From Marsupella aquatica (lineage: Eukaryota > Plantae > Marchantiophyta): 64,000 bases of DNA. Under the pieces are notes generated by a model. It searched no databases. It had not been told where the DNA came from and saw only the letters and a list, made by a program, of their open reading frames with translations. The translations under genes and the position numbers were made by a program. How positions within the stretch are numbered: position 1 is the stretch's first letter; every line of letters begins with the position of its first letter. The DNA is taken from NCBI GenBank assembly GCA_973895155.1, contig OZ316892.1:9280283-9344282 (forward strand). The letters are read 5' to 3'. This document shows positions 15,335 to 42,900 of this stretch, piece after piece.

Positions 15335-15934
15335 GCTAGCTTGATTGAAATTGTATTCAAACTATGATTTTCAAACTGAATCAGAGTGACATGCATACAA
15401 AATTGGGCCTACCGTCACAGTTGTACAACCGATGCCAACCACAGTCCAATTGCTCAAACCCATAGAGCCCAGTTTCTCAAATCCACTGTAGTAGGGCACC
15501 TTCTCCTTCTTGCATACAAATAGAGCATCACATACAGTGTCATCAGAATGATACTATGAACGTAAATCTCTGTGCCTTCATCATTTCCAGTATTTGTTTG
15601 CCTATTAGGAATGTGAGCAGACAGGTCTGGAATAAGTAACGTTTGTGACACCAGTGACAAATTTACAAGTGAAGTTTAGACATCAATATGGAGGAAAGTC
15701 ACACTCAAAGCACATGCTTGAAAATCGGAATCCTACCCTGGAAAAGATAATAAAGTTGATTTCTCAAAATTAATTGCCTCAATCCGCAATGCACTGTCGT
15801 AGAGTGTGTATACATGAGGAGTTCATCAAACTGCATATAAATAGTCCACATGTTTTAGCACTCTGAAAATTGTTTAAGTCCACGTGAAACCATCAAAAAG
15901 CTCTATCTCAAGTTTGTGTTCCATCCAACCTCAA

Positions 15935-20639: not shown

Positions 20640-23600
20640 GCCTTCCCATGACTATATGACCTCCAATATGCCAACATTAATGGCTTCCAATATGACAGCG
20701 TGAGTGACCCCACGTTTAGTCCTCAGATTGAAGCACCATTTAATTCACAAATGACCCAATGAACTCCCTTGTACCTCCAAAGAGAACCCCCCAATAGCCT
20801 TTGTAAAGACCACATTTCCAGTCATTTGGTACTTCTGACCTCTAGTATGACAACCAAGATTACCCTAATTTGAGGTGTTTTCATTAATGACACACCATGA
20901 GGGACCTCTCTAATGACCACATATGCAGTCAATTGCTCCAAATGACCTCCAACTGACTACCAAAATGACCCTTATTGTAGTCATTGACATTAATGACACA
21001 CATTATGTGAAAATGACCCAATGAAGAGTATACTACCTCTCGGAGTGCCCCTTTACAATTCCTTTGGAATTTAATAGAATATATCCAAAATCCAAATATC
21101 GGCACAAACATGACATAGTTATATAGAAGGACATAGTCTTCCACTAGTATTGCACTATATACCTCTTGGAGAGACAAAAACAATTTTTGTATGCATGCCT
21201 TAGGATGGTATGCATGCATGGTGACACTTTTGGCAAATCACTCCAAAGTTGTATGACTTGGGAGTGATTTCCCCAAGGTTGCATCATCCCTTAAGTAATT
21301 GCAAAAACATGGCTCCAAAGTGCTCATGGTGCAACTAGTGGTTGGAGAATAGTGGGTATAGTACCCCGCACCTTGTGGAGAGGTTGCCACCTTCATGTAG
21401 AGCCCCATGGCACACTAGGGCCACCTTAAGCTCCTAGACCCAAAAGGGTCATTTCTGATGGTCCGTAATGACACCATGAGGGACCTCTATAATGACCCCA
21501 TATGGAGTCATTTGGCACAAATGACTTCCAAAAGGACTGCCAAAATGACCCTTACTGCAGTCTTTGGCATTAATGACACACTATTCCTCCAAAATGACCC
21601 AATGAAGATTACAACACCTACTCACAATGCCCCGACACTATTCATATGCAAAATGGAGTATTCCCCATCCAAACACCGGCACAAACATGACACAATTACA
21701 TCACAAGATGACAACCTTCCATTGGTGTTGCGCTACTTCTTGGAGAGACCAAAAATGGCTCCATTTGCGCTTGGATACGGTGGTATGCATCCATGGTGAC
21801 ACTTTTGGCAAATCACTCCAAAGTTGTATGACTTGGGAGTGATTTGCCCAAGGTGCATCATGCCTTAAGTAATTGCAAAAACATGTGTCCAAAGTGTTCA
21901 TGGCACAACTAGTGGTTGGACGATGATGAGTATAGTGTCCCGCATCTAGTGGAGGGGGTTTTCACCTCTATGTGGGGCCCCATGGCACTCTAGGGCCCAC
22001 CTCCAGCCCCTAGCCCCAAACTGGTCATTTGTGCTTCTGCTTAATGATTGCACAAGGGACCCCTCAAATGACCACAAATCCAGTCATTTGACTTATGTGA
22101 CAGCCCATATGACAGATTTAATGACCCTACTTGTAGTCATTGGTATTTATGACACCAATTTTTTCAGAAATGACTCAATGAAGATTACACTACCTTCTTG
22201 AGTGCCCCATCACTATTCATTTGCAAAATAGAATATTCCCCATCCAAACACCGGCACAAACATGACACAATTACATGGAAGGACAACAGCCTTGCACTAC
22301 TTCTTGTAGAGACAAAAAAAATGGCTTCATTTCCTTTTAGATAGGACGGTATGCATCAATGGTGACACTTTTGGCAAATCACTCCAAAGTCGTATGACTT
22401 GGGAGTGATTTCCCCAAGATTATATCATTCCTTAAGTAAACACAAAAACATGGCTCCAAACTGCTAATGGTGCAACTAGTGGTTGGAGAATAGTAATTAT
22501 AGTATTTGACACCTAGTGGAGGGGTTGCGAGCTCTATGTGGTGCCACATGGCACTTTAGGGCCCACCTCCAGCCCCTAACCCCAAACTGGTCATTTGTGC
22601 TTTTCCTTAATTATTGCAGGAGGGACCCCTCAAATGACCACAAATCCAATCATTAGACTGATATGACTCTCTATATGACAGTTTTAATGACCCTACTTTT
22701 AGTCATTGGTATTAATGATGGGCCATTGCTCACATATGACCCAATAAAGGCCCTAGTACCTAGAATTATTGACATCCAGTCATTAGAATTATATGTCATC
22801 CCATATGACCAATTCAATGACCCTACTTGTGGTCATTGGCACTTATGACATGACTTTGTTAAAAAATGACCCAAAGAAGGTCCTAGTACCGCCAGAGAGA
22901 GCCCGCTCTACATTCCTTGCAAAAATGGAATAATCGTATACCTTTAAACATCAGACACATCATAGAGGGAAGCACCACTGCCACACCCATTCCATTGGTG
23001 TTGCGCTACCTCTTGGAGAGACAAAAAAGGGCTTCATTTGCGTTTGGAACAGTGGTATGCATCCATGGTGACACTTTTGGCAAATCACTCCAAAGTCATA
23101 CGACTTGGGAGTGATTTCCCCAAAGGTGCATCATGCCTTAAGTAAACGCAAAAACATGTGTCCAAGGTGTTTATGTCGCAACTAGTGGTTGGACAATGAT
23201 GAGTATAGTGTCCCGCACGCAGTGGAGGGGTTCTCACCTCTATGTGGGGCCACATGGCACTCTAGGGCCCACCTCCAGCCCCTAGCCCCAAACTGGTCAT
23301 TTGTGCTTTTCCTTAATGACTGCATGAGGGACCCCTCAAATGACAATAATTCAGGTCATTTCGCTTATATGACATCCAATGTGACCATTTTAATGACCTT
23401 TCTTGTAGTAATTGGCATTTATGACAGGCCATTGCTCACATATGACCCAATAAAGGCCCTAGTACCTCCAAAGAGAGCCATCTTTAGATTCCTTGCAAGG
23501 TTGGAATATTCCCAAACCCTAATCCCGCAGCCACACCATGCAAAGAAGCATGACTCCCCTGCCCATTCCATTCGTGCAGCACTACCTCTTGGAGAACCAA

Positions 23601-24420
23601 AAAACAGGTTTTATTTGCCTTTGGATGTGATGGTATACATCCATGGTTGCACTTTTGGCAAATCACTCCAAAGTCGTACGACTTGGGAGTGATTTCCCCA
23701 AAGGTGCATCATGCCTTAAGGAAACACAAAAATATGTGTCCAAAATGTTTATGTCGCAACTAGTGGTTGGACAATGATGAGTATAGTGTCCCGCACCTAG
23801 TGGAGGGGTTCTCACCTCTATGTGGGGCCCATGGCACTCTAGGGCCCACCTCAAGCCCCTAGCCCCAAAATGGTCATTTGTGCTTTTCCTTAATGACTAC
23901 ATAAGGGACCCCTCAAATGACCACAAATCCAATCATTAGACTGATATGACTCTCCATATGACAATTTTAATGACCCTACTTTTAGTCATTGGCATTTATG
24001 ACGGGCCATTGCTCACATATGACCCAATAAAGGCCCTAGTACCTCCAAAGAGAGCCAGCTTTAGATTCCTTGCAAGGTTGGAATATTCCTCTTCCCTAAA
24101 CCTGCACCGACACCATACTGAGAAGCATGACTCCCCTGCCCATTCCATTGGGGCAGCACTACCTCTTGGAGAACCAAAAAACAACTTTTATTTGCCTTTG
24201 GATGTGATGGTATGCATGCATTTATTTGCAAATTAAAATATTCCCCGTCCAAACACCGGCACAAACATGACACAATTACAACAAAGCATGACAACCTTCC
24301 ATTGGTATTGCCCTACTTCTTGGAGAGACAAAAAGGTTTCATTTGCCCCATGGATACGATAGTATGCGCGCATCTATATATGATGACACTTCTGGAAAAT
24401 CACTTCAAAGTATGACTCTA
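20640..24420. repeat. Large degenerate subterminal tandem repeats (~570-700-bp units) rich in ATGAC/GTCAT
   Basis: Anchor GGTGACACTTTTGGCAAATCACTCCAAAGT at 21220, 21795, 22361, 23067 and 23645 (variant). Confidence 0.9.
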
Positions 24421-24498
24421 CAATTATGATAGATGTCTGGAATGACTATTGAGTATTTTAATCTTCATATCTCTTGGGTTCTTTAATGACTCTATAAG

Positions 24499-24925
24499 TA
24501 GTCATTTATGTAATAAGTCCATAATGACTGTATGTTATTGTAAACATTGATATATCCTGATTTTTAGATTGACCCTATATTTAGTCATTTATGCGACAAG
24601 TCCATAATGACAGTATGTTGTTGAAAACACCGATATATCCTAATTTCAAGATTGACTGTGGAGTTAGTCATTTATGAGAGAAGTCCATAATGACGGTATG
24701 TTTTTGTAAACACTAATATGTCCTAATTTCAAGATTGACCCTAGAGTTAGTCATTTATGAGAGAAGTCCATAATGATGGTATGTTCTTGTAAACACTGAT
24801 ATGTCCTAATTTCAAGATTGACCCTAGAGTTAGTCATTTATGGCATAAGTCCATAATGACAATATGTTGTTGTAAACACTGATATATTCTCATTTTCAGA
24901 TTGACCCTAAATTTTGTCATTTAAC
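24499..24925 (+). repeat. 83-bp tandem repeat, ~5 copies (CACTA subterminal)
   Basis: TAGTCATTTATG at 24499, 24582, 24665, 24748 and 24831. Confidence 0.92.
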
Positions 24926-25290
24926 ACCGTTGGTTAAAATGACGATAATACATTTTTTGTCATTTATCACCGTTGTCCAAAATGATCCAAATAGATTTTT
25001 GGTCATTTCAGTCATTGTCCAGAGTGACTATAATGTTGATAAACACTGATTTGTCATTGTTGTTATTAATTGTGTCATTTAAGACATGTGTCTAAATTGA
25101 CCATTTAGGGAAATTGGGTCATTTTGGTCGCATCAGTCATTATAGACATTATACAAAATGACGAAAAAATTAAAATTTTGTCATTTCAGTCTATTGGTCA
25201 TTGTGGACAGTCATTCCCCTGTCATTCTTTTTGTGTCATTAAAACTTTTGGTCATTTATTCATCTCTGTCATTGGGTGATTGGTCATAAA

Positions 25291-25311
25291 GGGCCCTGTT
25301 TTCTTCTAGTG
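25291..25311 (-). repeat. CACTA terminal inverted repeat (one end)
   Basis: GGGCCCTGTTTTCTTCTAGTG, i.e. CACTAGAAGAAAACAGGGCCC on minus. The flanking 3 bp AAT is the candidate TSD. Confidence 0.85.
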
Positions 25312-27182
25312 AATCAAAGCTGTCGATAGACAAATTGAGCATGAATAAAAGCGCACTACACCTGAAGATTGAAAGAGGTGAAACAAACCTGAATGATGAA
25401 TGGAAGGAGCTGAAACAAGCTGCCAAAAAGTAGTTCGAGCTGCTGAAACACGTTGATCAAGCTGATATGAGCTTAAAATTGGCTGACACAAGCTGATACG
25501 AGCACTCCCAAAAAACTAGCTGCAACGAACCCAACGGGCTCCTAAGAATCCCTTCGAGCAAACTAGAAGTGAATACGAGCTGTAAATGCGAGCTGCAACG
25601 CGCCAACGAGCTCCTGGTCAAAACGATCGACAACTACTAAGAGCTGCAATGCGCCGACAAGCACCTGACCACAACGAACGAGCTGCAACGACAAAAATGA
25701 AATCCATGGCAAGAGCGAGCGCGAGAGCGAGAGTGAGAGCGACGAGCGCAGGCGTGCGAAAGTCTAGGGAGCGAGAAACAACAACAATGAACAGTGAACT
25801 CGAGACCGTGGGCGCCGATACTAAGGAAGGACTAATTAGGGTATTGTTTTAGCATAGCCCTAATAACAGCCTAGCGACAAGAAGGTTCCAGATGATCTCC
25901 GTACACTCCACCATCGACTCAACAAACTATGCAATCATGAAAAAAAGATTACCGGATTCCTTTTGATTTGCCGGACTAAAGGAGATTTCTATTTGATCGC
26001 CAATTTGAAATTTAAACCGGTAATTATGCAACTGCGAAAGATTGTTAGTGGGGACCCCTGGATCCGGATCCGTATCTTCACTATATCTGCCAATTCAAAT
26101 CCAAAATGTGAAAGAACGACAACTTTCCCACGATCGTTCCATCATGTAGTGGAGGCGAACTTCAAAATCATTCCATTTTGGTAGTGGAGACCTTCGGATC
26201 CGGATCCGTACTCCACTCTCTATCTTGCCAATTCAAACCCAAACTCTAAACAACGTAAAACAATTCTCACGGTCGGGGAGAACCAATATTCAAAATCAAT
26301 TCTGTACAATGATTCTCACGACTGGAGATTCAACCAATTTTCAAAATCAAAATCAAGTCCAGATGAACACATCCTTCATGTAGTCAATAGACTGATCTCA
26401 TTGCTCATGGATCATTCTTCATTTTCAGTTTCTCCTGACCAGGATACTAGATGGGCTCTCAGCGGAGGCTGATCCAAGGCACATTTAAGATGGAGCATAT
26501 TGGATCATTCGACTATTCCAGTCAGAGGCGGAGCTCATTCAAGCAACGCTGGCGCAGTTCTTGTTGTATCACCTTCAATCTTGGGGAGAGCACATCCGAT
26601 CAAGCGGGAGAGTTGCGACGAAGTGAAACGACAAAGATTTAGAACCTCCATAGTCTGCCTCATTCATCGAAGCATTCTAGCGGACCAATAAAGAGCGGCT
26701 ATTCTAAAATCATTGTTTGGTCGAGGATTTTGATCTTGATACGATCAACAAGTTGTCATTCTCTGGTGGTGGGATTCGGTCACGATACTCAAGGAAATTG
26801 GAGTTTGAAGGAGGAGGCTTAGTTGGCTGGGACGAGGAGGAGGCTACGCTGGAATGAAAAGGCTTGGCTGGGAGGAGGGTTTCCGCTAACATCGGAGGGT
26901 TGCCGCCAACATTGCTCAGACCACACGCAACTGAATAACTTGTAAGTATCAATCAGCATTAATTCCGCAATAAATGAGGAGAGTAGTTGCTTTCAAACAC
27001 GCATTCAATGCATGAATTGAGTCAATGAAGTTATGGTCCAATTTCTCACTCCGATTTTGATCAATCCGTGTTTCAAGTCCAATACAGAAGCAATGTATCA
27101 GAAGTACTAGTAGAGGATCCGAATGAATTCTCTAGTCTAAAATTGTATGGCGTTCAAGTATAGTTGTCCGTACGTTTTGCCA

Positions 27183-27788
27183 TTGTTTATTGTAGTCGAC
27201 GGCCTAGCAAAACAAAACGTAATCGAGGTCCATTTCTCAGATCAAACTGATCTCAACTTGTTAGTAGGATGACCTGATTTTTTGGTTACACATGTAGTTC
27301 ATCACGCGCACAGTCGCGTGAACCAATTTATCTCATGTCTTTTGATATTGTTTATTGTAGTCGACAGCCTAGCAAATTGGCCAACAATCTATTTTAAAAC
27401 CAAGGTCTTCGTTTCATCACGCGCACGGTCGCGTTAATGTTTTAGAGGTCAGCGAAAGCTGTGCACTCTTAGACGTAGTCGCCCTTTATTTCTCAGATCT
27501 GTCTGATCTCAACTTGTTAGTAGGATGACCTGTTTTTTTGGTTACACATGTAGTTCGTCACGCGCACAGTCGCGTGAACCAATTTATCTCGTGTCTTTTG
27601 ATATTGTTTATTGTAGTCGACAGCCTAGCGAATTGGCCAGCAATCTATTTTTAAACCGAGGTCTGCGTTTCATCACGCGCCCGGTCGCATTAATGTTTTA
27701 GAGGTCAGTGAAAGCTCTGCACTCTTAGACGTAATCGCCCTTTATTTCTCAGATCTTCTTGATCTCAACTTGTTAGTAGGATGACCTG
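27183..27788 (+). repeat. ~256-bp tandem repeat, ~2.4 copies
   Basis: TTTCTCAGATC...TGATCTCAACTTGTTAGTAGGATGACCTG at ~27233, 27489 and 27746. Confidence 0.9.
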
Positions 27789-28043
27789 TAACACGATTTC
27801 GGACCGACCGAGAAGTGTGTCGGAGTTCTCGTTTAGCCCGATCCCATTTTTTTCTAAGGCAATGCAATGACCGATAAAACTGTCAAAAACTCTCCGAAAC
27901 GACACTTTCCTCCATTGCATCGCCGCGGGAATGCAGGGAGTGATACGTGCATCGGGTTTTACATTCCGTCAGTGAAAAAGTCCAAACTGTGAGTAACTTG
28001 GTCCGAACCGCGTAATCCAGGAATGACCACGCACTAACCCAGG

Positions 28044-28112
28044 TAAAGGGGAAACTTAACCATGGTTAAGGGGAAATTAACCATGGTTTAGAGCGTCTCC
28101 TATATAAAGAGG
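28044..28112 (+). promoter_or_regulatory. Candidate promoter: duplicated AAGGGGAAA(C/-)TTAACCATGGTT followed by TATATAAA
   Basis: Motif duplication and a TATA box (CCTATATAAAGAG, ~28099-28111) upstream of the plus-strand cargo ORFs. Confidence 0.35.
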
Positions 28113-29225
28113 AGCGGGCTGCCCATAAAACGTTTGCTTTCGCCAGAGCAAATATCTCCTGACTGAGAGCGAATACCAAACTCCCATCGAGTCTTACATT
28201 CCTCCCAAGCGATTCGACTCTTTCTACCGAAAACCCGATAAATTTATCGGAACAGCCATTCCTGTTCAAGTTCTCCATGTAAGACTAACTAGTCATTTAG
28301 TGTAAAATGTCCAGATCCGAGCGGACTACGATAAATTTATCGCATCCTGAATTCCTCTGTTGCAATCATTTGATCCAGTGTTTAGAGAGGTGTTGCCTTC
28401 ATTCCGATAAATTTATCGGAGTCTTCATTCCTTTCATGGAAAGAGGAGTAATTGAGAATCCGATAAATTTATTGGAGTTGTCATTTTTGTGAAAGATTGA
28501 ATTCAGGGCTTAGGTGTTTGAGGAAGTCATATTTTCAATTTGAATGCGGAGTGCGATAAACTTATCGCATCCTCCTGTGAGAATCATTTTCCTTTGTTTT
28601 GTTTGGAGACTCATCTTCATCTCTGATGTCGCAGTGTTGCCGGGTTTAGGAGGCACAACGGAAGGTCAATTGCACTCTGTGGACAACAGGTATTGTGACA
28701 AATGGCTGTCTTCCTTGAAAATAGTGTCAAACGTGCACGCCAGTTGTACAAGAGACTCGTGCGACTCAAAGTTCTCCCCATCGGTATAGGAGCATTGTGG
28801 ATGGGTGGTACTGATCCTGGAGATAGGTAGAATCCTCTCCGCATTGAATTTTGCGGAATGAATGATGCAGGAGTTCCAATTCGTTCGAGGTTGATGTTAA
28901 CGGCGTGTTTACATTCTTTGGAGTTTTCTTGTAACTATTGTTGTCGTCGTCTTGACAACAAGTACCACAAACAGGCTCACTTCTGTTGTAAGATTTGGAA
29001 CGAAGACCCTTGGGTGAACCTTTCACGATGAGTGTTTCGACCTTTGCATTGAGGCGCGTCTTGTAAGGACATATTTAAATAAACAAGTCCTACCCTTGCG
29101 CAGCGAATATAATATGTCACAAGTCCTAATCGTTAAACTGTCATGCAGGGTTGGTACTGTGGATGTGTTTGGTTACACCTGGTGATTGAAGGTATTTTTA
29201 TTGGTGGTTTTGGTAGCTCTGCTTC

Positions 29226-29774
29226 ATGGCTGCGTCGGAGAATCTAATCGTTGCAAAGATGGGATCTGTTTTAGCCCACGAGCGTAGGAAATATATTCGA
29301 GGAAAAGTGCCCGGTGTGGAATGTGGAAGTTTGTTGAATGGACTTCCTGATCAACTCGTTGAATCTCACATTTGGCCCCTCCTAGCCTTGTCTTGCACAC
29401 AAGATGAACACCTTGGCCTTGACCTAAAACTTCTACCAGAAGAACGACTGACTCGAACGAGAACAATCATTTGTCTTGGAGCCACCTCAAAGAAATGGAA
29501 CCATCTTGTTGTTGGTACACAATTTTGGGCGCTATTGAAATATGCAGTCCGTGAGATCAATGACATAAACAAAATGCTCGCAAGCATTCCTAATGCCGAC
29601 CTTCTCTCAAACATACATATTGCTAGGGTCTTCCGAGAGGAAACTCATTTCCTCCCTCCCATAGATATGCTTGGGTGCTTTTCGTATGAGCAGTTAGATC
29701 AGTTTCTTAGAGTTTGGATAAATCTTGGAGAAAGCGGGAAGCAAACAATTCTTGCATGGCATGGACGAGTCTGA
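29226..29774 (+). CDS. F-box-like protein, 182 aa (transposon cargo)
   Basis: LLNGLPDQLVESHIWPLL...ICLGATSKKWNHLV resembles the F-box consensus (LPD...L...V.K.W..LV). Intact ORF. Confidence 0.55.
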   Translation: MAASENLIVAKMGSVLAHERRKYIRGKVPGVECGSLLNGLPDQLVESHIWPLLALSCTQDEHLGLDLKLLPEERLTRTRTIICLGATSKKWNHLVVGTQFWALLKYAVREINDINKMLASIPNADLLSNIHIARVFREETHFLPPIDMLGCFSYEQLDQFLRVWINLGESGKQTILAWHGRV

Positions 29775-30089
29775 GTGGATGAGGCATTGCTGCGAACATC
29801 CGATAAATTTATCGCACTCCTCATTCCTCTAGTCGATTTTGGGTGCTCTAAGGTTTGCTCGAGAAGAGCTTGTAAAGAAACACTTTGAATGTAATTGACT
29901 CTGCCTCCCCTGACTTCGGGTTGTGTGGTCCAGAGTGTATTTGTTTGCGCCTCTTTGGACGATTAGCTGACAAGTGCATTGGCTTCACAGCCCGTTATAC
30001 AAGGTACTGTAAAGTTGGATGAAACTTGTAGAATTGTAATTAGTATGTTCTCCAAAATTTATTCCTGATTTCTATTCGGTGATCAGGCC

Positions 30090-30518
30090 ATGCTCGAGCG
30101 ACGCATTTTTGTACCCTACCCGGATCCTCCAGAATGGGGGAATGGAGCCATGCTGGACCAGCTAAGGAGGCTGGATGAGTCACTAATTTTAAAGATATGC
30201 AAGCTGGTAGTAAAACCGTTTTACCATAACGCATTTCACTTCTACGTAGATCAGGTAGGGGGAGAAATTTATATTCGGTGGGATAGATATGTTGGATTTT
30301 CTAGAAGAGTTATCCTACTCTTTCTGAAAACCGGTGCAGTAAGACGTTTTATACTCCACTGCTGTCATGTTGTGAAGGGAAATCCTGCTTATGAGCCAGA
30401 ATTCTATGCCAACAACAGACGTAGAGCATTCGATGAGATTCAAGATGTGATTGACGAGCTGGACAATCCTCTTGCCACCGAGTTTTTTATTGACACTAGT
30501 GGGAAACTATATTCATAA
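30090..30518 (+). CDS. Hypothetical protein, 142 aa (transposon cargo)
   Basis: ATG-TAA ORF with globular-looking composition, co-oriented with its neighbours. No recognised motif. Confidence 0.45.
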   Translation: MLERRIFVPYPDPPEWGNGAMLDQLRRLDESLILKICKLVVKPFYHNAFHFYVDQVGGEIYIRWDRYVGFSRRVILLFLKTGAVRRFILHCCHVVKGNPAYEPEFYANNRRRAFDEIQDVIDELDNPLATEFFIDTSGKLYS

Positions 30519-30563
30519 AAGATTCGTCAACTCCCCCCCCAGCCGGTCTGTGCGCTCTTTAAC

Positions 30564-30803
30564 TTGATCTATGTAAGTTGCCTGTGGACGAACGTCCTTG
30601 CCAATGGTGAGATCTGTCCATGCTGCACAAATGCTTGTTGTGACATTCCGTCACGCCGGTATTCAATAGCAGTAGTGAATCCTGAGACTGGTGAAGTTGA
30701 TTTCCATTGGCTGTGGGCTTATGATCATCGCGTCACTCATATTCCCCAATGGCCCAAGAAGCGGATCGAACGCTTCGCTCTGGCGAGGTTCAACTATGAT
30801 TAG
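30564..30803 (+). CDS. Possible small Cys-rich ORF or exon (CPCC...CC)
   Basis: Short ORF without an ATG start, co-oriented with the cargo cluster. Confidence 0.25.
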   Translation: MIYVSCLWTNVLANGEICPCCTNACCDIPSRRYSIAVVNPETGEVDFHWLWAYDHRVTHIPQWPKKRIERFALARFNYD

Positions 30804-30860
30804 GGTTTAGGTTTAGGGGTTAAGGTTTAGGTTTAGGGGTTAAGGTTTTGGATTTAGGGT
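30801..30860 (+). repeat. Degenerate telomere-like (TTTAGGG/TTAGG) tract, telo-box-like
   Basis: TAGGGTTTAGGTTTAGGGGTTAAGGTTTAGGTTTAGGGGTTAAGG..., ~200 bp upstream of the ParB-MTase ATG. Confidence 0.75.
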
Positions 30861-31058
30861 TCCGTAGCTGATTCTTCAACCTGTACCTCGGCCGTCAATT
30901 TAAAGAAGGCTCACTTTTGCGATAATTTTATCGGTCATTTGCATTGCGGGTCTCTTTGTCCTTGTGTGATGAGATGTCGTGTCCACATGTGTTGTGAGAT
31001 TGGCGGCGATAATTTTATCGCTCTTTGCATTGGAATTTGTTTATTTGCAGACTTTGCC

Positions 31059-34000
31059 ATGGCTGCTAGTGGAAAGAGTGGATCTGCTGAGATAGAAAGT
31101 CTCATGACAAGCCTCACCAATGCAATTTGGACGAGTGAAGATATTTGTGAAGAGGTCAAGTGTATCAAGAAGTCATGGTACTTCCGTGACGCCAGATTAC
31201 AGTCCACGGGTTTCGAAGATTGTGCTACCCCAATCCTTTGGGTCCAGTTGCAAAAATCGGCGAAGGTTAATGTTTCGTATGGCCCTGTCATTGTTGTTGC
31301 CGTCGTCGAGTTCATGGTTGGCCACAGGGAGGGAAAATTGTTGACAGATGGCCTTAGTTTCTTGACAATGTGTGGGCGCAAGGGTTTCACATCTCTCATT
31401 GTTACTCTCGATAACTTTGATGAGAAATCGATGGACAGTTATCCAGAAGATCCCCTTGTTGTGGAAGTTCGGGCAACAAGAGAGATGAATGTTATGGGTT
31501 CGGCTTGGATCGGCCAGTATGTGCAAGATTGTGATGCCATCATGCTTCCAAGGGTGAATGCAGAGTACAAGAGACTTGTGGGTGAAGAGTTCAAACCTGT
31601 CCGCAAAATTGTTTTCAAGAAACCAGGTTCAAGTGGCAGCGGTGGTTCTAATGCCGATAAAATGTCGGGGCGAAAAGAACCATTGCAATCCTCTACACAT
31701 ATTGACGTGGACGAACCTACAACTTCTGGTCGGGTTTCGGGAAGTGGAAGAGGGAAAGGGAGAGGTAGCGGCAGGGGGGATGCCGCGGGAACCTCTGACG
31801 GTGGGAAGAAGAGCCAGGAAACTGGCGATAGTGGGAGAGGCCGGGGCAACCGTCGAGGACCATCCGTTAAACCAAGCGAAAGTAAAGGATCCGAGGGATC
31901 CGGGCCATCTGGTTTTGGACTTAACACAAAGAGGAAGAGGACTGGCTGGACTGAGATGGTGGCTGCAGAAGTAGATAGAGCTCCGTCAATTCCATCAGTT
32001 CCAGTCGCGGTTCCTGCGGCGCCATTGGTAAGTACTACGTCGTTGTACTGTTTAACAAATATGAAATCCGATAAAAATCTCGCTATTTATTTCCTGAATT
32101 GCGGATTGTGGAGTTATGTTGAACAAATGCAAACTCCGATAAAAATCTCGTAGTTTCTTTCCTTAATTGAATTTGCAACGCTTTTGTAGGTTGATGAGAA
32201 GGAGGAGATGGCTCTTTCGATGTATGAGACGGACGCGATCAAGGCAGAGCTCAGTCTTCTGATGCAACGAAGGGTGCAAAGGACAACTGTGCTTCTGCAT
32301 GTCGACAATCTCATATTTGATGAGGAGGGGGATTTGTCAACTTTGATTAGACCAGTGGATAGATTGCATGTGGAAAATATCAAGATACTTCTCATGAAAA
32401 ACCCCACCAACTTCAGTGCCCCGTTCGTGCTGTGTGTGGATCCGAAGGATTGTCCCACAACTGCAGATTGGGACATCCTGAAGTCAAGGGTATGGAAGTA
32501 TAGAATTATTGGAGGGAATCATGGTGCTCGGGCAAAGTCCGAGTTGTTTAAAATGTACGGGAAGCAAATCTATGGTGAGCTGGAAGCTTGGGTTTACGCT
32601 GGGCTTACGAGATCCGAGGTCCAAAAGTTAGGCTTCCAACATAACTATGACCAGGAGTATCGGAAGAACATGACTAAAATTGACCAAGTTCGCGCTTGTC
32701 ACAATATTTTCCTTGAAATGGGTGTGGGCTCGACTAAAAATGTCCGCGAAGCATGTTGTCAAGAATGCATGATGGAGTACACGCCAGGAGTTCGTGACTC
32801 CATGGCCAAACATGATCCGGCTTTCCAAATTGCTTTCCGAACAGGTGAAATTTGGGATCTTCAGGAGCAGATTTTCCAAATGTGGGAGAAAGATATTGTC
32901 TTAGGACAACCCAAAAAAATTGTGGCAATGACGAACGCAAAGGGAAAGGTAAAACCTTTGACGGTAAGGGAGATTAAAATGAATAAACTTGTTGGTGACC
33001 TCAACTTAAATTCATTTCGAGGTCTCCAAGGACTATCAAATAAGGAGCATGTGAAGCGTATCTTGAATAGGGTTATCGGGAAGGTGATCACTTTGGATCA
33101 AATGCACAAGGAAGGTGGGAAGTTGAAAAAGCTTGCCAAGGTGAAGAAACTATTTTTGCAGATATCTGGTCAGCCAGATTGGGCAACATGCAGAGAAATG
33201 TTTCCCAACGAAACAAATGGCTCGGTCCTTGGCATATGGGCGGAGAAATTGAGTGACGCGGTAAGCATTCCTCTCACAGCATGCTCTATCACGAGATTTT
33301 TATCGGCTTTAGCATTCCTTTGTTGGTTTCTGAGCGATTGCATCTATCAGCTAGCGTGCTCCATCGGGAGATTTTTATCGGCTTTAGCATTCCTTTGTTG
33401 GTTTCTAAGCGATTCCATCTGTCGGCTAGCGTGCTCCATCGCAAGATTTTTATCGGCTTTAGCATTCATCTCACGCTATTCTAACTGTAGATGTGTCTGA
33501 CATTTTTATAGCTGAAGATTAATTCAAAAAGGAAAAGCAAAGTGGTTCCGGCTGTCACTTATAATTATGCGGGGGAGGTTATTGTTCCCTCAGCTGAAAT
33601 CCCTTATGTGTTTAAGAATTGTGTGCTTGCTGCAATCGATAAGTACAATCGGCTGAGGTCCTTAGGCGAGGGCACAGCAGAAGCGTTTGAACAAACATGG
33701 AAAAATGCAGACGGGTATTCTTTTCCCTACTATCTCCATGTTGGTGATGTTTGAATTTTGGATTCTTTTGTTCAGCCAAGGGCTTACACCCTTGCGGTTG
33801 CGGATATTCCGTATGGTTTTAATGCTCCTGGTTCGGAGTTTGATGAAGTGGCCTTCACAGAAAAGGACATTTTAGACATGTTGACAAGTTTCTCAAAGAT
33901 GACGACCGCTAAGCAGTGGAGGTTTGTTGTGATCCATTCACTACAACAAACGCATATGGTGATGTCTGCACTGGAGAGTGTATGCAACTGTGGGGTCGAG

Positions 34001-34624
34001 GCTGGAATCTGGGAGAAGACTAACATTCATGAGCGTCCCGCTGGAGCTCGATTGGCGTGGGGTTTTGAAAACTGGTCGATAGGTTTCTATAGCAAGGAAG
34101 GCATTCGGAACATGGACATGTACAATTTCCAACCGGATGAGTCTCGCGTCAATATCATCAAGGTTCCATGTGTAACCAAGAAGTCCATTGATCCGTTGGA
34201 ATTTGTTGTGAACCCGTATTAGAAGCCTGTTGGTTTGGGGGCTTGGTTTGTTTCCCATTTCTCTGAGAAAGAGGATTGGGTTATTGATCTTTGTTGTGGA
34301 ACCGGATCGACATTAGCTGCTACGCTCCTCAATTCTCGCCAGGGTTGTGCTGTTGATAAGAGTTCTACGCAGATTGATTTTGTGAAATCCCGGATCATGA
34401 TTCTGGAGTCAAACTGGAATTTATATGAAGAATCCCAGATTGAAGGGCACGGCGTTGAAGGTCATGAGATTCAACCACCAATTGCAGGCCAATTGGGTGT
34501 TCTCAGGACATCGACTTACGTAGTTGAGGTCGTGAAGGAGACCGAAGAGGAACAAGAAGAAACTGAGGAAGAGCCTCCCAGAACACCAAATGAGGATGAT
34601 CTCAATGACATGTTATTAGATTAG
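31059..34624 (+). pseudogene. Spliced ParB/Srx-like domain + beta-class N6-adenine/N4-cytosine DNA methyltransferase fusion (~1050 codons; exons 31059-32027, 32190-33260, 33512-34624) with two in-frame stops
   Basis: Both introns are GT-AG, phase 0, and join the ORFs in frame. ParB-like segment LIRPVDRLHVENIK...YRIIGGNHGARA. MTase motif IV AVADIPYG precedes NPY*KP (cf. HPTQKP) and motif I DWVIDLCCGTGST...GCAVD, which is beta-class order. Stops TGA 33752-33754 and TAG 34220-34222 do not change the frame. Confidence 0.85.
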
Positions 34625-34954
34625 TTGCGTGTGCTCGTTAGGATAATGTCAATCACCATTGGAGTTGTCGATAAATTTATCGGATTCTGTATTCCATGAG
34701 GAAGAACCTTTGTCACATTTATTAATGCGATAAATTTATCGGACTTTGCATATATCGAACTGTTGCGGTGTTCTAGCTGGGGGAATGGAGTTGTCGATAA
34801 TCTTATCGGACTTAGCATTGTATGCTCTAACTGGTTTGTCATTGCAATTATTTCAAAAAAAGAATATCATTATAGCTGCGGAGTACATAGTCCCAGAACG
34901 ATAACCACTGTACATATTCATGGGAACGATAACCATTATAACTTAAACCTGCAA

Positions 34955-37900
34955 CTAGCTTTGACTATCAACGACTACAGTCTCCATTGCATTTTGAATG
35001 ATTCGTCTTGTTTGTATAGGGAGAGTACTATTTGCCAATAACGCAAAGTTATACGCATAAACGGCAGTTTCTGCTAGGGACAATTCATCCTCCAGTACTT
35101 TGCTAGACGAAGCCTCTTTCTTCGGATAATATCTGCCTTCAATTGCAGACTCTTCCTCTGAATCCATTGCATACCAAGTGATTTTAATCCACTCCGGGAT
35201 GTCGTTAATTCTTGTGAGAAACTCAGTCACTTTTGCCATCCAGAATGGTCTTCCCTTGGGATCCTGATGGGCTGCTACACATATCATTGCAAATTTAGTA
35301 TTCACCTCTAGATCCTTGAAGTCTTCAATTTCCGTGACTTTTCTTCGACTTCCGGAATACATGCCTATCCTCACACCCGCTACTTTATCAACCAAGCTAG
35401 GTTCCATTGCTGCTTCCGTAGGATTACTCGGAAGTTCTCTCTGTACGTTTACCTTGGGCCAACTCCAATCAAAACTCCATTGTGCAGGTTTCAGGTGGTG
35501 CTGAATCACTTCTTTTGTTTGTCAAAAAAATGACCCCACCATAGACGATCTTCGTCGTCAAAGTAATTGAATCCATCTTCAATTGCTCTTCGATATTTTT
35601 GAAGAGTTGACAAATAACTTTGAGCCGCCCGCTCATCTTGTTCCTCAGCATCATTCTCTTGCTCTTCATTGTCTCCTGTCACTCCCGTGGCCGACTTCAA
35701 TGCCATTTGTGGTGCGACCCACATTCCAGATGATGGAATGTACCGAACAAAATCCACCGTCTCCCCCCAATCGGTTGTCGTTGAAAGATGTTTGGCATGG
35801 AATACGGACCGAGCACTTCCATCTTCGAGTACTCTAGTAATCCGAAATTGTTTTTGAGCACTTATGCCGTGGAGAGTACGTAGAACCTGACCATCCATAT
35901 CCTTGTCATTTGCTTGATCCTTGTCTGACACAAATTTCTTGAAATCGGCAACCTCATTGACAAAAAATATCTTTGCCGTAGGATTGTAGGATTCCTCTAT
36001 GATTGCTGAAAGAGCGTCCAACCGGAAAGCTTTTCGCTTGTTCAATTTTGAAGAAAACTTGCTAAACATTTGATCAATTTGATCATGGGTGTGCCCCACC
36101 AATAGGAAACCAACCTTTATTTTCTGGAAAACACCTATCTCCACCAACATATTCAAATATGCCATAAGATATTTATTCTTGTTTTCCCGAGCTGTGTTAT
36201 CAAGCTGGAGGTAAAGCACTGGAGGGAGTAGACCTTCCCAGGTATTCAGAATATGCTGGATAACGTGGATGGTCAGGTTGCTATCATTGTGAATATTTGG
36301 ATAGTTCAAAAAAACATTTGAACTTAATTGTTTGTTGAAGATCAAACAACCCACTACGTGTACGGGGATGAAATACTTTTCATCCATATTCTTTGGACAC
36401 CAAATGAAATGAGGTAACTCTGTCTTCTTTTGATCCATTCCATCAATACAGATGCCCAAATATTTCTTCGGACTCTTGTAACATTTGCTCCGGTGCTTTG
36501 CTAACTTCTCCCTGTCGACTGCTTGTGCCTTCCGATGCTCGTTTAGCAATGTTGAGAATTTTCCTACAATAATACAAATGTTTAGGACAAAACATGATAA
36601 CCGCAATGTTGAACCCTGACAGCGATAAATTTATCGGGTTCAGTATTCAAACACAATACCGTAATGAAAAACTGTGACAGCGATAAATTTATCAAGTTCA
36701 GTATTCAAATTGTTCAAACGATATATTCACTCACATGGCCAAAGAAGAAGCACATGAATACTCAACCCGATAAAATTATCAGGAGTAACACACACGTTTA
36801 GAAACTTACTCTTTTTTGCTTTGAGTGTTGCCTTGTCACGGAGTGCTTTGAATTCAGTACACGGGGCGCAGGTGTAGAAACGGCTCCTTTTGGGGATGCG
36901 CATGCGAGGAAACTCCTTGTTCCAAATGCGAACAAACCACAAATATGTCATGCCTTGTTCTTGGCGCATTAGAGTTTCGGACTGGGAGGCATCAGGTCAA
37001 AAGCAAGCTTGAGGGGTACTGAAAAGTCTCCTATTTTCTCCACAAAAAGGATATACTCCTTGTCCTTATTCCAAGAATATTCCATAATGACCAAAATGTG
37101 ACATGGAATGGTTAGGATTGCTTGGAAAAACTTTAATGGTTAGATCTTGCATGCCAAGTCTTTGGAAGTGTGCACAACATTGTTGGAAGTGCCCCCAACC
37201 TTGCGGAAGTGTGTCCAACCTTTTGGGGAGGGTATTCAACCACATTTTAATGACATTTTCAGTCCTTTCCTTTAGTCCTTCAAAAGTGGTTGTCCTTAGT
37301 CCTGATTGCCTCCTTTGGTACCCCTCGATCTTGCTTTCCACTATCAAAAACTCTGTTTTTGTCCAATTGTCAGGTAAATGAAAGATATCCTTGTTGGGGA
37401 GACTCTCGACATTTGTGGAAAAAAAATCATCCAGCCATTGGACGAGACCAAGATGTGCGGGTGATTTTTCTCGACAAACTATACCGATCTGTATCCGAGA
37501 AAACATGTTCTGCGAGATTTTTTGGAGACGATTATTTCCTAGTGAAAATAATTTCTTAAAACCACTCCGACAAAAGGATCTACCGCTAACTGAGTCACCA
37601 CTTGCACCAGCATGCCCACCCTTCACACATCCTCTTAGAAGGACGTTCTTCTCTGGGTAGGATAGCCCATAGTAATAAGTGCGTTGTTTCGTCACGGCTA
37701 GCAGACCCAAATTCCTCAGACAGTAATTATCACAACACGAATACTTATGAATTTCTCTCATTTTGTTTCTATTCAATTTGTCATTTATCACATTGTCTTT
37801 CCTAGTAATTCGGTCCCTATCTTTTTTACTAGGCTCATTTGACTTCTCTACAGCCTGAAATCCGTTCATAACATTGGCATTTTTGGGTCCTTTAGGTGCC

Positions 37901-38838
37901 TCGCGAATAGATGCATCACTCTCTGCTGAGCTACCATCCTCTATAGATCTCCTTGATGCATTTAGAGGGGCACTGAATAGACGACTATAACTATTCTCTT
38001 CGACAGCTCCTTCTAAACATTCAGACACAACTTGTGCTATTATATCGGATTCTCTATCTCCTTCCTCATCTTCGTCCTCCGATGCACTCGACTCATCTAA
38101 AAACACAATTGGACTCCGTGGCTCTCTATACATAACCCGAACGCCACTAAGACCTCTCCTCGATACTTGGAGCCTGGAACCAATGACAGTCCGCCCTTGA
38201 GAACTTGGAGATTCTGGATTTGCACGTGCAGTCCCAATGACTCCGCGAGCTGCTGGAAATTTGAGCACTTGTTCACCACAATTCCCACGGACCATTCGAG
38301 AAAGGGCCAAGTCTAGACTTTGCAGTCCGATTCCTTCGCTTGCTCGCACATCCAGTCCAGGCAATGCAAAGACCGATCGCCGTATCGGTCTTTGTATATC
38401 TGTGTCCCGATCCTCACCCGAAGACTGAAAGATCCGTCATTGAACTTGTGTTGAATGTGGCGACTTGAATGCCAACTGCGATATGCGTATCGGTCGCCGG
38501 ATATCCTCTCCATAACCCGGAATGGATGGCCTGAATCGACGTCTCGGACCTAAACCTGGGATTGAAAGTTTCTCATTTCTTGGCGATGGAACGCTCAAGA
38601 GACGACGCTTCTCAGGTTTACTAGGCGACACATAGTAAGCACTGGGCTTAGGACCAGAACTTGCATCAGAATCTGAGTCAGAGATTTTGGGCACTATTTG
38701 CTGTGAGAGAGGTAGAGCTTTAAGTATGCAACTTGGCAAACAGCGAGCGACAAGATTAGGAGAGGATTCAACTGAATTGGAAGGTGAATTTGTGTCTGAT
38801 TGAGACATGGCTATCCGAGACACTATGGGGCTTTGCAT
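34955..38838 (-). pseudogene. Sola1/DUF7869-like DDD transposase
   Basis: Motifs CCDNYC, HLPDNWTK, FVRIWNKEFPRMRIPKRSRFYTCAPC, CIDGMDQKKTELPHF, LYLQLDNTARENKNKY, GFLLVGHTHDQIDQMFS. Intron 36809-36564. Lesions: in-frame TGA at 38437-38439, insertion at ~36983-37346 and a frameshift near 35508. Confidence 0.85.
36983..37346. mobile_element. ~360-bp insertion with imperfect near-terminal inverted repeats (MITE or small solo LTR) inside the transposase
   Basis: AAAGCAAGCTTGAGGGGTAC (37000-37019) versus GTACCCCTCGATCTTGCTTT (37318-37337), 18/20. It separates the WTKTE and SETLMRQEQGM parts of the transposase. No clear TSD. Confidence 0.55.
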
Positions 38839-39095
38839 TCCTCCCGCAATCTGGGAAAACGAAAGGCTCAACGGACAGAATGTTGCTCCAAGAACACAAC
38901 TCCCAAAACTCTACTCTCGATAATGACGCCAAAAAATTCTCGGCAGTGGCCCTTTTATAGTGTCTGTTGAGGGGTTGGCTCACGTGTCCACTTTTGATTG
39001 GCTGTCACCCTAAACGACAAAATAGCAGAAAAAGGTATATTTCTTGGATTTCCAATTTCATTCTCACACGTGCATCGTGGCAAAATTATATAGTT

Positions 39096-39300
39096 TTGAA
39101 ATTGAAGCGATAAATTTATCTGATGTTGGTATTGCAAAAGTGGTTCCTTCATATGGAAGTTGCAATTTGAAATTGAAGCAATAAATTTATCTGATGTTCG
39201 TATTGCAAAAGTGGTTCCTTCATATGGAAGTTGCAATTTTGAAATTGAAGCGATAAATTTATCTGATGTTGGTATTGCGAAGAGTTTTCTTCATATGGAT
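39096..39300 (+). repeat. ~72-bp tandem repeat x3, each copy carrying the palindromic motif, upstream of the transposase
   Basis: TTGAAATTGAAGC(G/A)ATAAATTTATCTGATGTT with motif starts at 39108, 39179 and 39251. Confidence 0.9.
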
Positions 39301-39959
39301 AGGAATTTTGAAATTTAACCGATGAACTGAAGGATCTTAGTATTGTCGACTAGTATTTTTGTCGCACGTTGTTTTTGCGATAATTTTATCGGACTGCGCA
39401 TTGTTGTTGAAAGAATGGCATGTTGACTATGGTCACTTGCGGAGGTAACTGCAAGGTAAGTTTGACGAACCGAGCAGTAATTCTTATCGACTGTGATGTA
39501 AAATATTTTTGGTAAATATCCAAAAACTGATAAAACTGAGATTAGGTCGGAGCTTTCATGGCTCAAATCCGGAGTCCGATACAGTTATTGCACTTGGCTC
39601 GAAACGTGGATATGGATTTATAGATAAGACCTTTCATATATCTTCGGAGAGCGTGAATATGAGGTTGAGGAGAAAGTTTTTTGGATCTAATTGTTCCTTG
39701 ATAATATGAATGTTTGTTAGCATGAATTTCATTGGTTTTGATCATTATTAAATTTGCTGTTTCAATCCAAACTCCGATACAAATTACATTATTTCCCCAA
39801 AAACGTGTTTTTGATGAAAAAAACTGCCAATTTCGTGAGATTCGGCGGACAATGAAAATACACTTCTCAGTTAGAGGAAATAGTTTTCGTTCGGTCCGAA
39901 ATTGTGTTTAAAAATACCCTTGCATTGTTCGCACGTCCTCCCTGTATTAGTAACACTAA

Positions 39960-42900
39960 GGTCCCAGGGCAATTTCATCCCGGTTGGTTGGACTCTGAAC
40001 TTCAAAGCACTCAGCTTTGATCTCCGGCCATTCTGGATTGCAAGTGAACGTGATGAAGAGATCTGGCGGGCGATATGTGCGTACCACAGCCATGGCATCC
40101 TGGTATGCTTGGGCTATACTACGTGCACTACCACCATAAGTTGAGGGTAGAATGAAAGTCTTGCCCAACTCACTTGCGCGGGCATCTCCCTCGTGCACGG
40201 CGTCTTGAAGGCCCGAATAAAGGTCCGTCCACAATTTTTGTTGATTGTTACGGATATACGTCAAGCATGTTTGATTGATGCATGCGTAGGCATCAACAAT
40301 GTATTGCTTGAGGAGCCGTCCACCATGAAGGAGCCAATCATCATTACATCGTGCATGAAGATGGTATGCAAAGTATTGCAGTTGGGTGACCTTCTTGGAT
40401 TTGTTACGTCCAGTCCTTGCCCCGACAACAGCTTGATGAAGAACCCCGTCACCCACTTCAAAACCCATCAACGGTCCGATATCATATGACCATCCGTCTT
40501 GGCCTTGCGGAAAAAGAAGAACATAGTGGAGTGGCGCATAAGACCTATGCCACTCAGAGATCCTACGCAATTGCCCATCTATTTGCCTAAGGATGATGTC
40601 CCTATGGCGGACTTCTATATCTTCATCACCCATTATGACAACGCCAATCTCATTGGCCGTGGCTTGTTATAATGCCTTGGTTCACTGTCGCGCTCAGCCA
40701 TGAGGTGTAAAGATACCTTTGGCACTTCGCCCCCCTCGATCCGACTTCCGGCATTCTTAAATAGATGCACATATGTTCATGCAACATGCCTTGTAGTTGA
40801 GCCAGTATGCTTGGATCCAAGTGAGGCATTTGGTTCAGCCTCCCTGGGCCCCCACTCTTAGGTAAAATGGGTCGGACGTGAGAACGATTCAAGGGTCGAT
40901 TTAATTCATGTTGAAGTAATTTTTAGAATTGGCTTGTAACTAAGCAACCCACTCTTTTATACAAATGTCACTTTCCAAATAAGGAAGAGCACTTGATATT
41001 CCGCTCCCATTTGTTTTTGGGAAGGGGGTATATAATCATCTCCGCCACACGGCATCATCTTAGTGGTACATGTGGCATCATCTAATAGGTACACATGTCT
41101 ATGCATTTTGGTATGCCGTTGTAAGTTGTGGCAGGGTTGTGGGGTTTAGGGTGGGTGTTTTGAACTACCTTGTGAGGAAACACATGGGGCAAATCCCTGC
41201 CCATTGGATCCGAGGGAGGGAAGATCTTTGAACAAAGAAAATGTAACTAATGAAGCCTATATAAAAATCCTCAAATCTGGATTCTATAATTATCTCAAGG
41301 ATATTAAGTATTGTCAAAATGTGTTTTTTTCTAAATAACAAGGCAAATTTTTATTGTTTCAAAAATAATAACAAGGGGTACTAGAGGGGGGTCCGTTCAC
41401 AGGGGGGTAGAGATTTTTTAGTGGGAGTGGGGGCCCAGGGTTCAGCCTGCAACAAAAACAATTAGAACCACTCAGGTTGGAGATATATGAAATATAGTTG
41501 AGCAAGATGGAAAAGCAAGTGGTCATGGGATCCAGGAGATGTACCTATTCCCAACTTCATTGGCGGTGTCATAAATGTACAATTGAGAAAATTTGGGTCC
41601 TTCTCCTGTAGGGGGCAAAAGGCTCCCTACAAGATGGTACAATGCTCCTTGGATACAAAAGGAGTACGGTCCTCGATTGTTATTGCGCTCAGACATCCAC
41701 TTTTGCACCAATGGAGGTAAACACCAAGGCATTGTTATAACCTCTTATGCTGTTGCAGAAATTCTTCCCAACATTGTCTTGCCTTGTAAGCAAGCTTCAC
41801 AGAGGCTCTAGTGGGGCACCCAAAGGAGGCAATTTAACCTTGCCATCCGCACAACATGCACTAAAAATGGGATTGTTTTCGGTGCCTTTTTTGCATTCCT
41901 CCAGCCAATGAAGTGCCCCATATATGCGGCACACCACGTCCATACGCCCCAAACAATGTCGGGCCAAGTGGGGATCCAACGGCCTTTGGGCCTTGGGAAG
42001 ACAATTGATTAGTTGTGCCCTCCGTCTTCGTCGCGCTATTTCCTCTTCGCTCTGCAATGCAGGTGTGACTGGTGGAGATGCCAAACTCTCCGCTTCAGAT
42101 GTAACATTGGGCACTACATCCGGTTCTCTTTCCTCACTTGACAACTCCAAGGTGCCCTCGACAAAAGTGTCAAATTCACCATCCCCATCATTGAGATAAT
42201 CTTCCTCGACGTCATATAATTACCCCATAGCATGTTCATCAAACCCGTCATCCACTGCCCCATTGATGAGCCACTCCTCATCAAACAAATGAGCTTGAGT
42301 GTGAGCTGCGTGCATTAGTTCCTCCGAAGGACAATCAATCCTCCCATCATCCAGAGCCCCAATAATAAGCCACTCCTCATCATAGAGGTAAGGTTCCGGC
42401 TGAACATGTGATGCTGCCTCATAGGATGTGTTGGAGGCTAACTCCAATGGAGGATGGTCAATCCCACTTTCATCCAAAGCACCTTGAATGAGCCATCCTT
42501 CATCGAATACATATATGTGGGTCATTGGGGACCATGGGTTGAAGGTCCGATGTGCTCGGATCACCAACACTACTGTTGGAAATTGCATGGGGTCTTTCCA
42601 ATGCTCATCCTTGGCCCCGAGCCTCATGACGGAGCTGTCTCCCACTGTTGACGCGAGCAACCAAGTCTGGTTGAGCGCGCGCTTCTGCCCGAACCCCATC
42701 AGTTGGAGCCCCCGTAACCCCTCCATTATTTCCAAGCACCCCATTTTGTTGTTGCCGACGCTACGCTTGCCTCTCCTAACACCGAGCTGCCAATACCTGG
42801 TCGGGAGGAGGCATGTTGGCAATGGTACCATCAGCAAAATAAAGCCCTAATTACTCCATGCTCCCATTTATAGTCCGTTGTCTGCATCCAACGCACATAT

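Follow-up and report, generated by a model that had tools for sequence, protein, structure and literature searches.

A candidate self-marking transposon in the liverwort Marsupella aquatica: a Sola1-like element with a ParB-like/amino-methyltransferase fusion gene and a dispersed 36-bp palindrome

Can a plant transposon carry both a DNA amino-methyltransferase and the sites that would guide the enzyme back to its own element? The question is raised by a 64,000-nucleotide stretch of the Marsupella aquatica genome (assembly GCA_973895155.1, contig OZ316892.1, positions 9,280,283 to 9,344,282; hereafter the window), which contains a dead copy of a high-copy family of cut-and-paste DNA transposons. 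This element combines a DUF7869 transposase, a convergent gene that joins a likely ParB-like domain to a beta-class amino-methyltransferase (hereafter the methylase), and many copies of one palindrome. In our preferred reading, a tentative one whose probability we place somewhat short of even, the accessory fusion protein would bind, as a predicted dimer, the 36-bp palindromes across introns, gaps and ends and methylate DNA at or near them, and the resulting private mark would likely help the element stay active against host silencing by 5-methylcytosine (5mC).

The palindrome is the most distinctive part of this arrangement. Exact copies of CGATAAATTTATCG number seven in the window, rising to 15 with up to one mismatch and 18 with up to two, and every match lies inside the element; with up to three mismatches 22 of 24 are inside, and an inclusive rule gives 29 sites inside and one outside. 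The first-pass annotation of this DNA had described about 23 copies of one palindrome; the site is a unit of 36 bp, not 14 bp, with the geometry AAT-N8-CGA[T/G]-N6-[A/C]TCG-N8-ATT. For comparison we used eight metagenome loci with related methylases (L001-L008, the first seven from one assembly). The shared core, which contains two CGs in each occurrence, has 17 copies in the element, where 0.33 would be expected, and 20, 6, 11, 6, 5 and 3 copies in L001-L006, where the expectation is at most 0.37; the core pattern was drawn from these same loci, while the outer AAT at -11, present in 80 of 136 half-sites, is not part of the pattern. Each close relative, tested for sites of its own, has its own version of the palindrome: CGAT-AAATTT-ATCG in Marsupella, CGAT-C(A/C)AAAC-ATCG in L001 and CGA(G/T)-ACNNGT-CTCG in L002-L006. 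A more distant methylase (L008:60-2150, 24% identical, with a degenerate motif IV) has its own, different 19-bp intronic palindrome, CGAGATAG-N3-CTATCTCG. None of the 29 sites falls in the firm exons (6257 of 12119 bp), two being in the uncertain 5′ region of the transposase, and 50 of 51 sites in L001-L006 lie outside approximate exons. As judged from these sequences, the site is kept across subfamilies with saturated synonymous sites, almost always outside exons. Since a long two-fold site is retained in non-coding DNA while synonymous sites saturate, the palindrome is most plausibly a protein operator.

The fusion gene has three exons between 31059 and 34624 on the plus strand, with junctions read from GT-AG signals and conservation, as had been predicted (Table 1). 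All four of its reported motifs (IIGGNH, DIPY, NPY-stop-KP and DLCCGTGS) were found. Exon 1 had no Pfam match and no convincing Protein Data Bank (PDB) match. For exon 3, 27 relatives share 47-72% identity, and PF01555 is recorded for 20 of these; a fold model built from 20 sequences (predicted local distance difference test, pLDDT, 65) has CcrM, M1.HpyAVI, M.BceJIV and N4CMT as top Foldseek matches (E 1e-10 to 1e-12), with RsrI likewise among the matches. Catalytic motif IV precedes the motif I that binds S-adenosylmethionine (SAM), together with a beta-class fold, so the expected N6_N4_Mtase assignment is borne out by the predicted structure. In the close family motif IV is DIPY or DVPY, which differs from canonical [DNS]PP[YFW]; among the 32 relatives submitted for alignment it is D-x-P-Y/H/C in those from Chara, a fern and Ginkgo and canonical DPPY in three, and both YQKP and the GxG loop for SAM are retained by most of the aligned relatives from Chara, liverwort-like plants, ferns and Ginkgo. 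The same DIPY occurs in an enzyme of a streptococcal phage, where the annotation is adenine methyltransferase. Across 15 pairs the methylase shows proportions of nonsynonymous differences (pN) of 0.06-0.28 against synonymous ones (pS) of 0.47-0.84, similar to the transposase, and the methylases of L001-L005 contain no stops, values that indicate strong purifying selection. The fusion methylase is probably catalytically active in the plant clade. As to the mark, the aspartate of motif IV, together with the nearest matches, makes us lean slightly to N6-methyladenine (6mA) over N4-methylcytosine (4mC); the SPPY motif of 4mC writers of the N4CMT/DN4MT1 type is replaced by DIPY, and, in the part of the N4CMT study available, the PF01555 domain does not fix 6mA or 4mC specificity. 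Another methylase of the comparison set, at L007:1-1986 (39% identical), has three introns, lower CpG and no palindrome of its own, and is possibly domesticated or part of another element type. A longer-length search with exon 3 gave no match, and neither methylase nor transposase was found in viral and prokaryote contigs.

At E<=0.001, 152 relatives of exon 2 were found. The scan took in 45 long ones out of 150 listed; nine of these match N6_N4_Mtase as well, eight of them above cut-off, and the named fusion relatives are from Chara, Riccia, Ginkgo, Adiantum, Holothuria and Ptychodera, with Clastostelium showing a weaker methyltransferase match; in these annotated relatives the ParB-like and methyltransferase domains are one polypeptide, as far as the gene models go. 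Several concordant signals point to a ParB-N-type domain: ESM language-model features computed over residues 1-160 in a relative with 54% identity reach 0.93 for ParB_N clusters (DUF3723 clusters left out), four ParB-like PHROGs are matched (best E 3e-4, 0.013 for the Marsupella protein) and a profile comparison (hhalign) to a phage ParB-like protein gives a probability of 43%. A PDB sequence search with exon 2 found no match, and tblastn of exon-2-type queries against phages and plasmids gave nothing or E ~7. The ParB/Srx-like domain proposed from IIGGNH is thus likely, with weak support: the motif and the concordant signals stand, and a Pfam ParB match is missing. DUF3723 ranked first for the features of the whole of exon 2, whose language-model neighbours are fungal DUF3723 proteins, a conserved Starship cargo; DUF3723 may itself be a ParB-like relation of the exon 2 module. 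A helix-turn-helix in exon 2 was seen by eye only. The homodimer prediction for exon 2 scored 0.51 against 0.00 for the best control, with at least 33% of contacts shared between runs and pLDDT of at least 69; 17 of 29 eukaryotic homodimers came up to this mark, but only 1 of the 7 without an older solved relative, and none of 30 single chains did. Exon 2 is predicted to form a dimer, possibly from the memory of the model. A covariation between exon 2 residues and sites, drawn by eye from two against two loci, was rejected as confounded by kinship.

The transposase reported opposite the fusion gene is present: 35509-36630 (-) matches DUF7869 in Pfam (E 2.9e-50), and full-length relatives place its exons at about 37351-37818, 36793-36966 and 34955-36585 (-). 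Sola1 transposases have a DDD catalytic triad, and three acidic residues (D48, D129 and D171) are conserved here in 74 of 77, 79 of 80 and 78 of 78 covering relatives. The equation of DUF7869 with Sola1 is drawn by us from layout and termini. The same transposase is convergent to the methylase in four of the eight metagenome loci (L001, where 28 amino acids remain at the contig end, L002, L004 and L006), L003 and L005 stop ~350 bp past the methylase gene, and in Riccia sorocarpa consecutive locus tags encode a DUF7869 protein (R1sor_010795) and a fusion (R1sor_010796). The linkage, which had been set as one of the points on which the proposal could fail, is found in other copies.

The element itself ends in inverted repeats of 32 nt (Table 1). 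At 27790 the preceding flanks are diverse in contigs of three sequencing runs (agreement of loose ends 0.45-0.52), which supports the left end as first drawn. The right end at 39944 was rejected in favor of 39908, where the inverted repeat stops, 36 bases earlier; since sequence from 39908 on is joined to a different conserved repeat in contigs of four runs, 39909-39944 is likely part of that neighboring repeat. Contigs cover the element throughout in all four public runs, deeper toward the ends; one contig runs from 28581 straight on to 38931, the structure that a deletion derivative would have. Sola1 elements make a 4-bp target-site duplication, and none was seen at the ends of the Marsupella copy, which is likely rearranged because its left and right flanks come from different repeats. 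That the copy is inactivated, as first noted, is evident from two in-frame stops in exon 3 (33752-33754 and 34220-34222, where relatives carry R and Q) and a frameshift in the transposase near 35512, where contigs of other copies have one extra base. The second cargo open reading frame (ORF) has a stop at 30516-30518 that is a sense codon in nearly all contigs aligned there. Family searches with the two cargo ORFs gave no assignable match, the PPR matches being likely due to chance.

Table 1. Features of the Marsupella aquatica element, in positions of the window
Feature	Position	Strand	Remarks
Whole transposon	27790..39908 (12,119 bp)	.	Inverted ends, diverse left flanks, contig coverage
Left terminal inverted repeat (AACAC...)	27790..27821	+	32 nt, 81% complementary to right arm
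Weak site match	27809, within left terminal repeat	.	Inclusive rule
Left subterminal sites	27930..29050	.	Cores 27941, 28236, 28329, 28405, 28461, 28554, 29026
Cargo ORF, weak F-box-like match	29217..29774	+	Pfam E 0.043, below cut-off
Intergenic sites	29790..31031	.	Cores 29801, 30920, 31007
Second cargo ORF, ~240 codons	30069..30803	+	ORF list, contigs
Fusion exon 1, conserved ~200-aa domain and low-complexity linker	31059..32027	+	31-32% identity in L001, L003
Two sites, fusion gene intron 1	32058..32161	.	Cores 32069, 32137
Fusion exon 2, likely ParB-N/Srx-type domain and helical region	32190..33260	+	IIGGNH near 32505-32522
Three sites, fusion gene intron 2, in 75-bp tandem repeat	33281..33466	.	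Cores 33292, 33367, 33442
Fusion exon 3, beta-class N6/N4 amino-methyltransferase	33512..34624	+	DIPY, NPY-KP, DLCCGTGS
Three sites between convergent 3′ ends	34658..34819	.	Cores 34669, 34728, 34795
DUF7869 (Sola1-like) DDD transposase	34955..38910	-	Pfam match, full-length relatives
Three sites, transposase intron	36612..36792	.	Cores 36623, 36681, 36768
Two variant sites, unconserved 5′ transposase region, coding status uncertain	38363..38503	.	Cores 38374, 38479
Right subterminal sites	39097..39601	.	39108, 39179, 39251 (71-bp tandem repeat), 39378, 39577
Right terminal inverted repeat (...GTGTT)	39877..39908	-	Pairs with left arm; next repeat joins there

How might the parts work together? 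The reader of the palindromes would probably be the fusion protein; the transposase is a minority candidate and other cargo an improbable one. We favor the fusion because the terminal repeats do not have the AAT-N8-CGA geometry of the sites and because Plavaka elements, which have another transposase, also combine ParB cargo with arrays of inverted repeats. The CTP (cytidine triphosphate) pocket of ParB includes the arginine of a GxxR motif. The box here is GGNHG, and an arginine follows GGxH in only 3 of the 69 matched boxes among 150 relatives; because that arginine is missing, a CTP-clamp mechanism, and with it the parS-like loading first suggested, is doubtful. Direct, operator-like binding is more likely than clamp-and-slide loading. 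Local methylation and a role against silencing are put forward by analogy to the VANC proteins of Arabidopsis VANDAL elements.

Besides this missing arginine, a number of observations weigh against the proposed self-marking. The ParB signals are weak, as given above for hhalign, PHROG and Pfam. Instead of DPPY, motif IV reads DIPY, and among animal and amoebozoan relatives it is degenerate (DMPQ, DVPN, DTPT). All of L001-L007 derive from a single assembly; L007 and L008 lack a transposase in the ~500 and ~900 bp available downstream, the introns of L007 are free of sites, its one core match being in coding sequence, and an adjacent transposase tag was seen for only one of three named Riccia fusion genes among the 80 matches listed. 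Both stops in the Marsupella copy fit C-to-T change at CG and CHG, and since this is what 5mC deamination would leave there, this copy appears not to have been protected. According to the available text of recent reports, the adenine methylases (DAMs) of retrotransposons gave no 6mA in Escherichia coli and streptophytes are without abundant 6mA (10.64898/2026.05.21.726589), and transposases alone can activate cognate copies in a sequence-specific manner (10.64898/2026.08.24.746577). In its most demanding form, with an active, sequence-specific methylase that docks on the 36-bp operator and writes a 6mA or 4mC self mark blocking host 5mC silencing, the proposal is doubtful.

It is possible, if unlikely, that the fusion binds the palindromes and acts without catalysis, as a VANC-like anti-silencing factor or an operator-binding regulator, the methyltransferase fold serving dimerization, SAM sensing or shielding of the CGs in the sites. 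Such a role would suit the non-canonical DIPY and DLCC, the pair of CGs in every core, the decay of motif IV in animal and amoebozoan relatives that retain the fusion, and the inactivity of transposon-borne DAMs in E. coli (10.64898/2026.05.21.726589, in the part available). It fits poorly with the D-x-P-Y/H motif, YQKP and GxG loop kept in most aligned plant-type relatives under strong purifying selection, with canonical DPPY in three relatives and with DIPY in a phage enzyme. In P0117, P0130, P0155, P0164 and P0132 (all but P0155 named from animals and one amoebozoan) the ParB-like and methyltransferase-fold fusion is kept and the catalytic motif is decayed, which suggests a non-catalytic role in those relatives.

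Less probable again is a transposase that recognizes the palindromes in the way that TnpA and the AtMu1 transposase recognize their own elements, while the methylase acts apart, on the ends, target DNA or genome-wide, timing or limiting transposition. Sequence-specific activation by transposases is on record (10.64898/2026.08.24.746577, as far as that text goes), terminal repeats and sites both contain a CCGA/TCGG tetramer, and transposase and methylase are co-inherited in the compared loci, so that these loci cannot tell the two readers apart. Set against this are the geometry lacking in the terminal repeats, the palindromes of L008, which lie in methyltransferase introns with no transposase seen in the downstream sequence, and the Plavaka arrays, where, in the text available, ParB cargo goes with a different transposase (10.1101/2025.02.11.637652). 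A methylase carried along passively after its capture, with palindromes that arose only as a side effect of tandem duplication, is very improbable and already largely refuted: several sites do sit in local tandem repeats, but purifying selection, the conserved convergent layout and a 36-bp geometry that stays fixed across subfamilies even though their synonymous sites are saturated speak otherwise.

The self-marking reading has a close precedent, and the idea that the design is categorically new was rejected on that account. In Sola1-1_Ec32 of the brown alga Ectocarpus, a large Sola-1 element, a gene with ParB-like and N4/N6 methyltransferase domains lies on the strand opposite the transposase, and self-modification was put forward in a paper that cites Iyer 2011 (PMC12477816); from the text available, the same hypothesis for ParB-methylase transposons is published and still a proposal. 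The Marsupella element is likened to it by layout and termini (AACCG...CGGTT there, AACAC...GTGTT here; proteins of 1104 and ~1050 amino acids), whereas the algal element is 21.5 kb long with a 282-bp terminal repeat against 12.1 kb and 32 bp here, the word stem "palindrom" is absent from the main text of that paper (PMC12477816), and the Marsupella family likely has a land-plant host with CG/CHG methylation. In red algae, the Plavaka PAG2/PAG3 elements carry a ParB-like accessory protein proposed to bind and modify its own element, adjoining inverted-repeat arrays and with a PF01555 methylase in the same cassette; unlike here, the transposase is of the EnSpm/Plavaka type, ParB is fused to a 2-oxoglutarate oxygenase and the methylase to SET in separate genes, and the arrays adjoin PAG3 (Bostrychia) instead of being dispersed through every non-coding gap (10.1101/2025.02.11.637652, in part).

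Other systems share single features. N4CMT of bdelloids and MpDN4MT1 of Marchantia have the PF01555 beta-class fold; in the accounts available they are host genes with SPPY/TSPPY, whereas DIPY here is transposon-borne and fused to a ParB-like domain. To our knowledge VANC has no methyltransferase or ParB domain. Like the sites described here, VANDAL motifs are element-specific, lie in introns, intergenic and terminal non-coding DNA, are multiplied by tandem repeats and differ between families, and this pattern of family-specific motifs in non-coding parts and tandem repeats was found in the Marsupella element; VANDALs are MuDR elements with non-palindromic motifs of 8-9 bp, and their activity was shown by experiment (PMC5735166, from the part available). 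DAM-carrying retrotransposons likewise bear a prokaryote-like adenine methylase proposed to favor element activity, but they are retroelements with a different class of DAM, and the available text mentions neither Sola, ParB nor N6_N4 (10.64898/2026.05.21.726589). Phage ParB-like nuclease domain proteins of ParB-terminase loci (Mithril gp1) share an AGNH/GGNH box and the weak profile match in a prokaryotic viral context (PMC4738411, in part) and are the likely source of the ParB-like module, as far as such matches go; the phage, viral and prokaryote collections searched contained no close relative of exon 2, the methylase or the transposase.

Other repeats lie in and around the element. Telomere-like TTTAGGG-type repeats (30804-30862) directly follow the second cargo ORF and are also present in contigs of other copies. 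A 256-bp tandem repeat of another high-copy family (27217-27788, 2.3 units) is cut exactly at the left end, and a fragmented Helitron helicase region (39956-42846 (-), Helitron_like_N E 1e-32) abuts the repeat at the right end. CpG observed/expected is 0.69-0.78 in the ORFs of the element, 0.25-0.65 in other ORF regions of the window and 1.01 in the adjacent left repeat; this contrast is confounded by age and was discarded as evidence. Farther away (20750-25312), ~576-bp units repeat in tandem, an inverted repeat lying inside each, and 83-bp repeats follow; this is another element with palindromic arrays, ending at 25312 in what we take to be a CACTA-type terminus. Two broken CACTA-like transposase regions were seen by eye from ORFs (11773-15361 (-) and 55485-58691 (-)), the second near an SNF2-like helicase fragment (52358-53026 (-)).

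New in this study are a likely land-plant family of ParB-methylase transposons and a defined 36-bp candidate site. In the literature searched, with subscription papers, Repbase and supplements outside its scope, we found no land-plant report and no target site for this type of methylase. The family offers a precise candidate site, subfamily variants suited to specificity swaps and relatives whose reading frames are open. An active enzyme would make 6mA or 4mC locally in plants, where these marks are contested. If the proposed self-marking is true, a transposon would be writing an amino-methyl epigenetic mark in plants, transposons would have, besides VANC, a second sequence-specific way around silencing, and the element would carry a compact, portable module of site plus writer.

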